The translations under genes were made by a program, and so were the position numbers. Source: a bacterium (GTDB lineage: Bacteria > UBA8248). From it: DNA of 64,000 bases. The stretch lies in contig CBDBZY010000064.1 of assembly GCA_965213685.1 (NCBI GenBank), positions 1,472,001 through 1,536,000 on the forward strand, written 5' to 3'. This document shows, piece by piece, positions 918 to 19,511 of the stretch. The notes below the pieces were generated by a model. That model did no database searches. It was not told where the DNA came from and worked only from the letters and a program-made list of their open reading frames with translations. Position 1 is the first letter of the stretch; the number at the start of each line of letters is the position of its first letter.

Positions 918-3900
918 CATTGGGCCTAAAAATGTTTTCACTGAAGACATCAATCAGTAGACCATCAGTGTCACTGAAGTCTGTGAATTCACACTGCAAG
1001 TAATGAATATCAAGGTGGGCAGTACGATATGTATAGAAAAATGATGTATGTACACATATCAAACAGCATCAACAATAGTAGGGATTTGTTGAGCCTTAAA
1101 AATTGACCTGTCCCCAAGTGTGTGTGTACCTGATAGTCCCACGAAGGATTGTACCCACCCATGACAGAGGGTGTGCGACAACGTTGCTTCCCCACTTCAA
1201 TCACACAGAAAAGGCTGAAGGAGTTGCAGTTGGCGGCCAGGCCCAGATTGCTGGCTTTATGTATGGTCAACTGGAGTTTTTTGTAGGGCTCCCCACTGTT
1301 CTTTTTTAAAGCTATGGGAAAATAATGGACAGGAGAGAGTGGATCAGGTTAGAAGAGAGGTGGGAAACAAAGATGTGTGAGGGTGAGACATATAATATAC
1401 TGCATAGAGGTTCAGGTATAGATTTCAGAATAGATCTAGCTGGCATGACAGCAACTGTCTACCTCTGTTCCCAATGAGTACATAAGTGTCAGCATGTGCT
1501 GAGGTGGCAAACTTGATGGCCTCAGACAGGTCCTCTACCCAGATGTCCCTACAGGAGTGTGAGGAGGTTCTTTGCCATAGTGCAAATTACAGTGCACAAA
1601 TATAAAGTATATAAAACATTTTCAAAAAATGTATAGGGATGTAGGGATGGCCATGCCAAAAACTACAGAAACTAGGTGTAGGGATGGCAGTGTGCAGGGA
1701 AGACATGTTATACAAAGACTACACAACTAACCCCATCCCTACATCTTTTTTTATATCTGAAATCATTCTGCGAGTTTTGCTACAAGATTACTGGGAAGAG
1801 CAATTTTTGAGCCAAAAAAAAAGATGTAGGGATGGGGTTAGTTGTGTAGTCCTTGTATAACATGTCTTCCCTGCACACTGCCATCCCTACACCTAGTTTC
1901 TGTAGTTTTTGGCATGGCCATCCCTACATTCCTATACATTTTTTGAAAATGTTTTATATACTTGTTTGCGTCCCTTTTTTAGCACAAGGGTACCATTAAA
2001 AGGTAGATTGTTCTTGCCACTGAAGCTTCTTTCAGATTCCAGCAAACAAATCAGTGGTCATAAGAGCCAATGCTAAGGCGGGGCTTGAACACCATCGTTT
2101 CTGAAGTTGGGGGGCTGAGCCCCTCTAAAATTTCTTGAGCTAGAGTAGCTACATATGTACCTCACTGTATCTAACTGGCCAACTCATCCCCGCTACATAA
2201 TAGTATAGTGAAGTAAGACGCAGCTCGAATGCGCCATCAGATATGAAGCAGCCTTTGCTATGTCTCGCGAACCTATAATTAATAGGCGTGGCTTCGCGAG
2301 GCCCGCCCTCACGTGCTTACCGTTTGCGCCACGTGACAGTAACTATTACAAAATGGTTTCCCAAATATGGGAAGTTGTCGGGGACTTCTAGTTTCTGCCC
2401 ATTTGGGAACGTACTAAGAGTTTTATTAGCACAGATCGTATTTGGTAGTGATTACAGTGGATCCGTGAAAGAACTACGATGATTACTTCAGCCAGTTTTG
2501 AGATACGTTAGTCTAAAGAAATCTCTTAAGAAGAAGAAGAATAGGAAGAAAGACAAAACGACCTTTGGAGAGTTTTCTGGTAGTAAGTCAAGGGATGCAT
2601 TTTAGCTACTTGGGGGGTATTGTTGGGTAGCGAACCACTGGAATAGAATAGCTAGGGGCCCAGAAAGGCTTAGAACGCGAGTGTTCGCGAGTTTAGAAGG
2701 CTTTCCTATGTACACGCACTATGGGCGTGTCGGCGCCATCCCTACATAGAGAGTCTACCGACTCTCTGATTATAGTGACAGGTCTCAGCCAAAGAAATGT
2801 ATTCAGAAACATCATGTAATACATGTCCATCCTTTCACACACACCCTAGTAGAAATGTAACCATGGATCTGTGGTGCAAATGTTAAAATCCTCCTACCTA
2901 GCTTCTTTAGAAACAGCTTGTAAAACCACCTCCACCACTTTACTGTGGTCATTGAAGTGTAGGCAGAAACTGTCATTGCCTAGAGAAGGATGAGTAGAGA
3001 AAAGAAGTAGGATTGTAAATCAAAATTACAGGGTACAGCTAAACATTTGTGTATGATTGCACAAATTGGTTCAGAGGATTATAAAGACTGCAATTTTGTA
3101 GCATTGTTAGTTTTGTTTTTTTCCAGGCTTTGTACTTTCAGAGCATAGTCAAAAAGCACATGAGTGAGAAAAATTGAAAGGTATGAAAGGCTTAGTCACA
3201 TGAGGTAAAAATCAGGTGGGAGGGATCTTACAAACTACACATGGGTCACTCCCACCAGGTATCTATCTACATGTACATTGTACCAACATCTACTCCACAC
3301 AGTATACTGCCAGGCTTGTTTTCACTCACTTGCATGGTACATGTTCTTGCTCACATGGCATATTTTGGAAATAGGGAAAGTCTGAGATTAATTGTCATAT
3401 TCTCAGAACCTAGTGTAAATCAAGCCGGCTGGACGGTTTTAAAACCAGCCAGCTCAATTAAATGATCCACAATGCCTAAACAATACCCTGGTTACCAAAA
3501 ATGTGGGATACGCTGGATCTGTAGCTTGGTCTAACTCAATCACAGGTGCATGGATAGCATAATGGTATACCAACATAGGGGGCGCTGCTGGGAAACGAGA
3601 AGCTTACAAATCACTATGGTGTGACAGGATCCATAGCTAATAATCCTTGGTTGGCATACCTGCACATGCATATGTGTAGCACATACATGTACACGTACAT
3701 GCATAAGAGTACATGTACATGTACATGTATGTGTGTGAACATGCCAACCCTCCCTGCAGCCAACTGTTTTAAAGCAGTCTAGCCATGTTTAAGGTGGTCC
3801 AGACCATCTTAAAATGGTCCAATGGTTTTATATCAGCCCTCACAAGAGTGTATAATAAGTGATAGATACATGTACAGGTACATGTATAATGTACTGCATC

Positions 3901-18900: not shown

Positions 18901-19511
18901 TTCGATGAGTATAAACTTTCATGGCACATCTACCAGCAAAATTAATGGTTGCAAAGTTTTTCAAAGAAGTTGAAATACATGTAGTATGTAAATACGTTTC
19001 TGTTTCATATATCTCTCCATCAGTAATTACTCTGATCAAAACTGTGTTACTATTTACAATGCACTTCCAAACACACCTTTGTGGTTACAGGGAAGACCAG
19101 ATACAGCTGATAAGAAGGTCTAAGACACAACAATACTACCTTATCTCACTAGCACACTCTTGTCTATCAAAACTCACATGCTAGTAAATGCCACGCCCTT
19201 ATAGTTGTGCCATTGTTCTTTCTGCGCAACACAGCACTAACTGGGCTGCAGCCTAGATACCCATTGGTTAGCGTATGTCCGTTGTTGCTCGTTGCGCCAA
19301 ACGTACAGTAGTCTACTTAGTTCGATACCTCATAATTCAATACACTATATTCTGTTACACTCACATCTGAAGACTGCGTATCCGCGGTGGACTGAGATCT
19401 TTGACTGCCGCCGAAGTTAGCGCCGTTCTGTCCTGTTCCCTCGAACGTCCAGTTAGCCTTAATTCGCCGGGCTTGACCCACTGCACCAGAGCTCGGAGCC
19501 ACCCTGGACAT
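918..19511 (-). CDS. Multi-exon gene: CARD-like domain + S/P-rich linker + intersectin-L-like PH and C2 domains (about 960 aa visible; 3' end unresolved)
   Basis: Phase-compatible GT-AG exons: 19511-19329, 18730-18395, 18133-18076, 17964-17906, 17316-17214, 16073-15882, 14942-14127, 13084-12696, 12288-12226, 11977-11906, 6547-6404, 3959-3911, 2979-2898, 1548-1463, 1311-1130, 993-918. CARD-like: LLPSLQQQHLLTEEDVDYIRSPHRSDEERKDRILSAILLQEGDSIDRLVDCLSQETSHSGHKYLARRL. PH: RIEWLQERV..HIQFNSKTHYGEQRELLYSGTLHK..RFVVLFTDMLLV..PLPLHLLTV..VLQAVSKEARDIWVEDL, cf. intersectin [33 protein letters not shown]. C2: LQLTIHKASNL..FCVIEVGKQRCRT..NPSWDYQCEF..LLIDVF. The N-terminal exons are less certain than the PH/C2 exons. 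Confidence 0.8.
1606..1963. repeat. Foldback repeat (about 150-bp arms); single arms at about 85-225, 4830-4985, 28780-28900, 30455-30610, 38085-38180
   Basis: 1606-1752 is a near-perfect reverse complement of 1814-1963; GATGTAGGGATGG sub-repeats. Confidence 0.8.
4175..4672. mobile_element. TIR element nested inside a CCATCCCTAC-family repeat
   Basis: About 40-bp imperfect TIR CCTAGTACCCACAGCGAAAAAGTACGCCTAGTACCACTTG; the flanks continue the host repeat. Confidence 0.6.
5051..5400 (-). mobile_element. Helentron/DINE-1-like element, 3' part (another fragment at about 9165-9335)
   Basis: AAAGCACTAAAGTGCAAACCCTCGG is the reverse complement of the 3' end at about 25000-25030. Confidence 0.7.
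8692..8856. repeat. (CA)n microsatellite
   Basis: Direct observation. Confidence 0.95.
10370..10771. mobile_element. Tc1/mariner-type MITE with CAGT...ACTG ends
   Basis: TA|CAGTAGACATCAAAATAAAGT...ACTTTATTTTGACGTCTACTG|TA. Confidence 0.75.
11513..11725 (-). mobile_element. tRNA-derived SINE-like repeat
   Basis: A box TGGCTCAGTTGG and B box GGTTTGAATCC, flanked by GAGCTGCCTC inverted repeats; multicopy in the window. Confidence 0.7.
13543..13969 (-). mobile_element. Helentron/DINE-1-like element, same family (3' end missing)
   Basis: Reverse-complement similarity to 24525-25000, including the AACCC..GCGC..GAGGGTT 5' hairpin. Confidence 0.7.

Follow-up and report, generated by a model that had tools for sequence, protein, structure and literature searches.

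A demosponge gene encoding a predicted CARD ahead of an intersectin-type PH-C2 cassette that lacks the DH domain

We analyzed 64,000 nucleotides of DNA (the window; positions 1,472,001 to 1,536,000, forward strand, of contig CBDBZY010000064.1 in GenBank assembly GCA_965213685.1, filed under the bacterial lineage UBA8248). On its minus strand, the window carries a gene predicted to encode an N-terminal CARD, a long serine- and proline-rich linker and a PH-C2 end of the intersectin type. The contig (C64 of the assembly, which we call G000) is 1,635,321 bases long. G000 combines 22 contigs with a GC content below 0.56 (4.90 Mb, carrying intron-rich animal genes) and 49 contigs with a GC content of ~0.65 (3.07 Mb). 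The region of the CARD/PH-C2 gene is intron-rich animal DNA; from position 19511, its minus strand reads as successive open stretches with AG and GT at their edges. The whole window is host DNA from a sponge that was filed in a "prokaryote" genome assembly. The marker-based figures of G000 (94% complete, 3.7% contaminated) are blind to the sponge contigs. None of its 22 congeners (2.9-4.6 Mb) carries the gene, and a search of 44 genomes of the same order found it only in G000 itself.

A search with the open reading frame (ORF) of the C2 exon returned two proteins. One of them, P0002, lies in a 15-member cluster that comprises eight NCBI isoforms of Geodia barretti GBAR_LOCUS26037 (CAI8047117-CAI8047124), five JGI proteins and two ENA ORFs. 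Automatic naming has labeled two of the isoforms "Intersectin-1" and the other six "hypothetical protein". The full-length Geodia forms, P0003 (962 aa) and P0007 (961 aa), start with the same N-terminal peptide as exon 1 of the window gene and continue through a CARD, a linker, PH and C2. Using P0002 and P0003 as tblastn queries, we found all segments collinear on the minus strand of the window, with E-values down to 5e-27 for a single exon. Identity to Geodia was 35-58% in the N-terminal pair of exons, 43-52% in the CARD exons, 39-50% in the linker exons and 74-88% in the nine PH-C2 exons. Calculated by domain, it amounted to 49% (49/100) for the CARD, 41% (154/372) for the linker and 82% (258/314) for PH-C2.

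The exon model was assembled by script from the assembly sequence, and its splice placement rests on homology and sequence. It comprises 15 exons with compatible phases, no internal stop codon and GT-AG boundaries at 14/14 introns. Starting with the ATG at 19511, the ORF ends at a TGA in the terminal exon and encodes 879 aa; the gene spans 21,001 bases. Fourteen exons lie inside the window. The terminal exon lies outside, 1.3 kb past position 1 (G000:C64:1470511-1470668, minus strand; window -1332 to -1489), and was found by tblastn (E 4e-19, 41/52 residues identical to Geodia, ending in TGA). An earlier note on this DNA, made from the letters alone, had located the gene correctly, as the collinear Geodia matches confirm, and was exact for the gene start (19511), a CARD exon end (15882), an exon start (12288), a donor (918) and the 407-bp intron (12289-12695). 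Its multi-exon, phase-compatible gene stands; its count of 16 exons within 918-19511 gives way to the 14 supported in the window plus one outside. The C2 domain is incomplete in the window and extends into the terminal exon.

Exon 1 (19365-19511; this and all following exons are on the minus strand) contains the ATG at 19511, a conserved N-terminal peptide and a phase 0 GT donor, and is matched by tblastn with residues 1-24/1-40 of Geodia P0003/P0007. An in-frame stop lies nine codons 5' of this ATG (ORF 19317-19538). The first 24 residues (19440-19511) are 54% identical to Geodia, and the remaining N-terminus is not conserved. A small acidic, glycine-rich exon (18076-18133; AG/GT, phase 0 in, phase 1 out) precedes the CARD and shares 11/19 residues with Geodia. 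CARD exon A (17214-17339) covers helices 1-3. Its ORF matches the hidden Markov model (HMM) of the CARD family with an E-value of 0.0014 among 176,657 assembly ORFs, and in unsplit relatives (P0031) it is contiguous with exon B. The earlier note had the CARD region start at 17316; position 17339 is more likely the start of this exon, because the acceptor there fits the phase-1 donor of the preceding exon (18133-18076) and homology to Geodia runs through. CARD exon B (15882-16073; helices 3-6) is 52% identical to Geodia, has 24 relatives at E ≤ 0.001 and keeps both flanking intron positions in other assemblies. Up to two extra N-terminal exons in the ORF 18877-18311 were considered and excluded from the model, as no similarity to Geodia was detected there even at E ≤ 50.

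Linker exon C (14127-14942) is rich in serine, proline and threonine, has a conserved island of 30 aa close to its beginning, and forms an 816-nt open frame with 39% identity to Geodia and whole-codon insertions and deletions. Linker exon D (12696-13084) is 50% identical to Geodia, and its final ~10 codons open the intersectin-like block, where the ITSN2 alignment starts. We rejected a second possible donor, 30 nt further upstream within the linker exon, as its use would drop residues conserved with Geodia. The 407-bp intron between this exon and the DH-PH-linker exon (12289-12695, GT-AG) includes a (CT)n microsatellite and is too short for a RhoGEF domain of ~180 positions. Exon E (12226-12288; 81% identical to Geodia) appears to encode what is left of the final DH helix, together with the DH-PH linker, and it aligns with the ITSN2 and ITSN1 chains just past DH.

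The PH domain follows with exon F (11906-11977; strand 1; 88% identical to Geodia; weak PH_13 match on its ORF), exon G (6404-6547; strands 2-4; 88% identical; within the PH_13/PH match of P0003), two short exons at 3911-3959 and 2898-2979 (14/16 and 20/27 residues identical to Geodia) and an exon for the PH C-terminal helix and the PH-C2 linker (1463-1548; 24/29 residues). C2 exon 1 (1130-1311), corresponding to strands 1-4 and loop 1, reaches 24 bits with Pfam C2 (cut-off 22), is 84% identical to Geodia and was recovered by a six-frame family search. C2 exon 2 (918-993), corresponding to the loop 3 region, is 80% identical and leads through its phase-1 donor at 918 to the terminal exon.

The relationship of the tail to intersectin was apparent from PDB sequences. 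The best match was the ITSN2 DH-PH-C2 chain 3jzy_A, to which Geodia residues 648-933 aligned in one stretch over chain residues 208-486 (E 5.8e-18). This alignment begins at chain residue 208, past DH, and covers the DH-PH linker, PH, the PH-C2 linker and C2. ITSN1 DH-PH was second in the same search (E 8e-8). Pfam detected C2 (2.8e-11), PH_13 (8.5e-9) and PH (3e-7) in P0003, and no RhoGEF, SH3 or EH at E ≤ 10. Nor did six-frame family searches across the entire 7.97-Mb assembly turn up any of these three domains; the same method recovered the split C2 exon. The nearest Atlas cluster is "Intersectin 1" (score 0.84), which serves as a lead only. These alignments identify the tail as an intersectin-type PH-C2 cassette from the DH end onward, without DH itself. 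Only as a whole is the cassette specific to intersectin. The similarity sets in within linker exon 12696-13084, ~10 residues short of its 3' end, and not at the 407-bp intron. A clean junction from exon shuffling at the intron is therefore not supported, and the exon shuffling proposed in the earlier note is not demonstrated. A predicted structure of the linker plus PH-C2 (Geodia P0014, 10-row alignment) reached a predicted local distance difference test score (pLDDT) of 29.6 and a predicted template modeling score (pTM) of 0.18, and was discarded.

The calcium-binding loops of the C2 domain were compared with those of the MCTP2, ITSN2 and NEDD4 C2 domains. In the window and in Geodia, both ligand positions of loop 1 are occupied by non-acidic residues. 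Loop 3 keeps one of the three acidic ligands, giving 1/5 canonical calcium ligands overall; the ligand positions are those generally described for C2 domains. Calcium independence of the C2 would be a reasonable reading of these loops.

The evidence for the N-terminal CARD began with exon B, whose 24 relatives were found among 1.84 billion proteins (representatives). Ten of the 24 are exon-sized ORFs from other assemblies, and some others hold the whole domain unsplit, with the equivalents of exons A and B contiguous. We aligned eight exon-sized ORFs with the cluster member P0041 and the window (alignment A3). Similarity ends at the same 3' boundary in 9/9 sequences and at the same 5' boundary in all six that reach so far, indicating that the introns flanking exon B are conserved. 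A second alignment (A1, 13 rows) combined the Geodia domain and both CARD exons of the window with 10 of the 24 relatives, omitting ORFs that cover only the exon, near-duplicates and two proteins with tandem CARDs. Pfam CARD (PF00619) matched 10/13 rows. The death-fold families among the Pfam matches of the A1 rows were CARD and CARD_2 only, with no Death, DED or Pyrin family. When the 10 relatives were scanned singly, all matched PF00619 at E ≤ 0.1, seven reaching the 23.9-bit cut-off and three falling below it.

The A1 profile retrieved 11 sequences from the PDB at E ≤ 1. Ten of these are CARDs, with CARD11 at 1.2e-3 followed by CARD9, RAIDD, CED-3 and ICEBERG. An HMM built from 10 independent relatives spans the spliced exon A+B junction of the window with 118.6 bits, and the family HMM singles out only the two CARD exons of the window among all ORFs of the assembly. 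The 4.9 Mb of sponge contigs yielded no further CARD of the same family. With exon B as the only query, phmmer returned no informative match from the PDB and the Atlas search no usable one; exon B also showed a weak match to DUF7639 (E 0.04).

Structure comparison pointed in the same direction. The AlphaFold2 (AF2) model of the Geodia domain, which is 49% identical to that of the window, consists of six helices (pLDDT 88.8, pTM 0.79). In a VIA fold search of 48,161 representative chains, the Apaf-1/caspase-9 CARDs scored Z 13.1, with a root-mean-square deviation of 2.1-2.4 Å over 94-102 residues. Of ranks 1-18 (Z 13.1-9.2), 17 were CARD entries and the remaining one was a de novo designed protein. 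A death domain first appeared at rank 19 (Z 9.2), the first PYD scored 8.4, and DED scored at most 7.1. When the Foldseek matches were reassessed, 48/50 rows were titled CARD, the others being a de novo designed protein and "unknow protein 4". The signals for the CARD subtype differ: the sequence profile is best for CARD11 (E 1.2e-3), whereas the structure scores higher with Apaf-1/caspase-9 (Z 13.1) than with CARMA1 (Z 9.4). Based on the consistency of the fold-match list together with the sequence evidence, we assign the N-terminal domain as a predicted CARD-type death fold.

The CARD subfamily also occurs in other contexts (P0024/P0042, P0036, P0037), either as an unsplit CARD with a 14-residue tandem repeat or as tandem CARDs. 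P0042 resembles the gene in the CARD alone (34% over 100 aa). These proteins could be partners or paralogues.

The linker between the two ends measures ~390-402 aa over two exons (402 aa in the window model), with 38% S+P+T and a charge of +21. It contains conserved islands, among them basophilic-kinase-type RRxS sites. This basic, S/P/T-rich composition, together with the islands and the RRxS-type sites, suggests that the linker is a regulated part of the protein.

The CARD and PH-C2 exons are united by the Geodia sequences. In this relative, the whole protein is read without interruption on JGI contigs of 3.3-4.5 kb, the ORFs on those of 3.3-3.7 kb measuring 836-962 aa (the JGI set overall ranges from 1.1 to 4.5 kb). 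The Geodia genomic ORFs P0015 and P0016 stop precisely where the long linker exon is bounded, and P0012 and P0009 part ways exactly past the first C2 exon. From the uninterrupted ORFs, these breaks and this divergence, we infer that the JGI contigs represent spliced RNA. P0009 (289 aa, on a 1,119-nt contig) crosses the linker-to-PH and PH-to-C2 junctions, and in the transcript-type Geodia proteins linker exon D and exon E are joined directly. The Geodia annotation was built with poly-A RNA-seq and StringTie, according to the accessible text of the genome paper (PMC10542158). The uninterrupted CARD-to-C2 proteins imply that the CARD and PH-C2 exons share one transcript in this relative. In the window itself, the PH-C2 exons upstream of exon G (exons E and F) contain no start codon, and the linker ORF closes four codons past its donor. 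By homology to Geodia, the CARD exons and the PH-C2 exons of the window are assigned to one gene.

A third species contributes a CARD-exon ORF (P0022) and a C2-exon ORF (P0001), each on an ENA contig of 511,531 bases. The two probably share one contig and hence the same locus. With the Geodia PH-C2 as the query, a search among proteins of 529-1684 aa returned only its own cluster and no further full-length ortholog, and the S/P-rich exon found no match among longer proteins. Searches of metagenome contigs and genome contigs for a related locus returned none.

Much of what the earlier note had read from the letters is borne out by these results. It had proposed a single gene, which the Geodia ortholog unites in one protein; a CARD-like fold, as indicated by the Pfam matches of the relatives, the PDB profile search and the AF2 model with its VIA matches; a linker of about 400 aa rich in serine and proline; an intersectin-type PH-C2 from the DH end onward without DH, now aligned to 3jzy_A as one block and free of RhoGEF matches; and C2 loops poor in acidic ligands.

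We interpret the locus as one functional demosponge gene of 15 exons, in which an intersectin-type cassette minus DH stands behind a CARD, the product most likely acting as a membrane-held CARD scaffold, and we assign this reading a probability of about 0.78. The protein would comprise, in order, a short conserved N-terminal peptide, the CARD (~aa 75-174), a disordered basic linker, the last DH helix, PH and C2. Its tail would derive from a DH-PH-C2 cassette of the intersectin type, with the DH (RhoGEF) domain lost and a CARD now in front. By analogy with the general behavior of PH and C2 domains, the PH-C2 end may anchor the protein on a phosphoinositide-bearing membrane without calcium. The CARD may recruit or nucleate another CARD protein through homotypic contact, as CARDs generally do, and the linker, judged by its composition, may be where regulation acts. 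Membrane binding, CARD partners and the adaptor role are thus put forward by analogy.

Several observations weigh against this interpretation. When the C2 is searched alone, MCTP2 (6.7e-12) is a better match than ITSN2 (5.5e-9). With a net charge of -6 on the C2 and just +5 on the PH region, an electrostatic basis for membrane binding is not evident. The Geodia CARD scores 19.9 bits against PF00619 within the whole protein and 22.3 bits alone (E 7e-4 and 1.4e-4), in both cases below the 23.9-bit cut-off, and the window CARD exons gave no CARD match in Pfam when scanned separately. Foldseek on the Geodia CARD model returned nothing at E ≤ 0.001 (best 3.6e-2), with a list almost wholly of CARDs, and in VIA helical bundles may reach Z ~13 from their arrangement alone. 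No RNA from the window species supports the union of the two sets of exons, which follows from homology.

The alternative that survives best, though we consider it unlikely, keeps the gene model but sees the protein as a scaffold that works like the intersectin-L tail at endocytic or exocytic membrane sites, with the CARD merely as a self-association module. PH-C2 is the best conserved part of the protein (82%, vs 49% for the CARD), and the DH-PH-C2 end of ITSN1-L works at exocytic sites, according to the accessible part of a review (PMC3753573). No CARD partner was identified, and a second CARD of this family is missing from the 4.9 Mb of available sponge contigs. However, the exchange-factor domain that carries the known activity of that tail is absent, and so are the EH and SH3 domains that link intersectin to endocytic proteins. 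CARDs, moreover, typically recruit one another by homotypic contact in complexes of cell death and immunity.

It is much less probable that the N-terminal domain belongs to another death-fold subtype or is an unrelated helical bundle. The subthreshold Pfam score of the ortholog, the weak Foldseek E-values and the caution about helical bundles would speak for it. On the other side, 7/10 homologues pass the CARD cut-off, the Pfam matches are to CARD families only, 10/11 PDB profile matches are CARDs, and the VIA list is headed by CARDs, which exceed the first DD, PYD or DED by ~4 Z units.

Two separate genes, one with the CARD and linker exons and the other with the PH-C2 exons, joined in our model by a coincidence of phase, would be a highly improbable reading. 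Phase compatibility at a single junction has a one-in-three chance, and the RNA evidence comes from the relative. Nevertheless, CARD and PH-C2 are united both in the proteins read from short JGI contigs of Geodia and in its annotation based on RNA-seq, the intersectin-like block opens within the linker exon, exons E and F contain no start codon, and the linker ORF closes four codons past its donor. For the Geodia relative, the two-gene reading is largely refuted. Least credible of all is a decaying intersectin paralogue without a function of its own: the catalytic domain is lost, and among the 40 variants listed of 121 between samples six lie in modeled exons (four protein-changing and two synonymous, a set too small and too selectively listed to carry weight), but the ORF is intact with every splice site canonical, PH-C2 is conserved at 82% vs 41% for the linker, the gene is seemingly expressed in Geodia, nine further ORFs from other assemblies carry orthologous CARD exons with matching intron positions, and none of the 12 listed indels (of 15) falls in a modeled exon.

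In its genomic setting, the CARD gene has no flanking intersectin exons. Upstream and head-to-head with it lies an intron-split homologue of the ribosome biogenesis gene SDA1 (29967-32749, plus strand), and downstream are a PPP phosphatase and a helicase. Contigs from four DNA runs (one study, three samples) cover 30/30 bins of the locus and are broken at repeats; among the contigs listed, none bridges the (CT)n repeat of the 407-bp intron.

The introns and surroundings are rich in repeats. An inverted repeat resembling a miniature inverted-repeat transposable element occupies 1605-1963 in an intron, with 158-nt arms that are 96% complementary and copies at 126-228, 4121-4172 and 4859-4910. 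A second dispersed family is found at 5074-5211, 9189-9333 and 13540-13687. Read depth at the dispersed repeats is thousands of times the unique depth. The 64 kb contain 10 matches to the tRNA model, one of them inside the 5.4-kb PH intron (11583-11655); ARAGORN reads two of the 10 as having the anticodon CTA. The matches may represent tRNA genes scattered through the region or short interspersed nuclear elements derived from tRNA. Elsewhere in the window, two near-identical single-exon Sulfotransfer_2 ORFs (43648-44475 and 61035-61829, both on the minus strand; one was scanned, E 7e-32) indicate a recent duplication, as judged by their near-identity. An RVT_1 reverse-transcriptase ORF lies at 54565-55416 (plus strand).

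Geodia GBAR_LOCUS26037 is the closest known counterpart of the gene. The two are orthologs with the same order of peptide, CARD, S/P-rich linker, PH and C2, and they are collinear exon by exon with 82% identity in PH-C2. They differ in length (961-962 aa in Geodia vs 879 aa), as Geodia has ~66 extra N-terminal residues, and the Geodia protein is uncharacterised. Its name, "Intersectin-1", is misleading, because EH, SH3 and DH are absent. The long intersectin isoforms (ITSN1-L/ITSN2-L) are built as EH-EH-coiled coil-SH3x5-DH-PH-C2 and have the part from the DH end through C2 in common with the sponge protein. The latter instead has a CARD at its N-terminus, lacks EH, SH3 and DH, and has replaced C2 loop-3 acidic ligands that ITSN2 keeps. 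In the absence of DH, Cdc42 exchange activity would be impossible for the sponge protein.

Among CARD proteins, CARD9 and CARD11/CARMA1 similarly place an N-terminal CARD before a long regulated region. CARMA proteins have a membrane-associating C-terminus. In contrast to CARD9 and CARMA1, no coiled coil or MAGUK region was detected in the sponge protein, a comparison made with no coiled-coil predictor run. The accessible text of one study reports only type 2 paracaspases from Porifera and restricts homologues of the CARD-coiled-coil proteins to species bearing Bcl10 (PMC5978004). Another describes ~460 death-fold genes with many novel combinations in Amphimedon queenslandica, lineage-specific CARD architectures in a demosponge to which the present gene is comparable (PMC3879445, as far as its text was accessible). 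The words "pleckstrin", "intersectin" and "C2 domain" do not occur in the accessible main text of that paper, supplements not covered, and the combination is not described there. The accessible part of the Geodia genome paper (PMC10542158) does not mention intersectin, and literature searches on the architecture or the locus tag found no description, again with supplements not covered. The earlier note had not recognized the architecture; no paper describing it was found, but it is already public for Geodia barretti as an uncharacterised database entry misnamed "Intersectin-1".

The individual domains are ordinary, and the novelty lies in the combination of a CARD with an intersectin end that lacks the guanine nucleotide exchange factor. 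Novel death-fold architectures are expected in sponges, as the accessible part of the Amphimedon survey indicates (PMC3879445), which tempers the significance of a further one. A bolder reading, which we regard as doubtful, would see here a membrane-anchored CARD nucleator of the demosponge lineage that couples a lipid signal through a phospho-regulated linker to death-fold filaments, in a manner like that of CARMA/CARD9 proteins toward Bcl10 but for a caspase/NLR-type pathway, in animals that are said to be without the CARD-CC/Bcl10/type 1 paracaspase complex (PMC5978004); it would also place the intersectin DH-PH-C2 cassette before the split between sponges and other animals. The gene bears on the age of this cassette: invertebrate intersectins are said to be without DH-PH-C2 in the accessible part of a review (PMC3753573), yet an intersectin-type PH-C2 of demosponges is under strong constraint. 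If the protein is indeed a membrane-tethered CARD scaffold, it may provide an entry point to how sponges wire their expanded death-fold repertoire to membranes.

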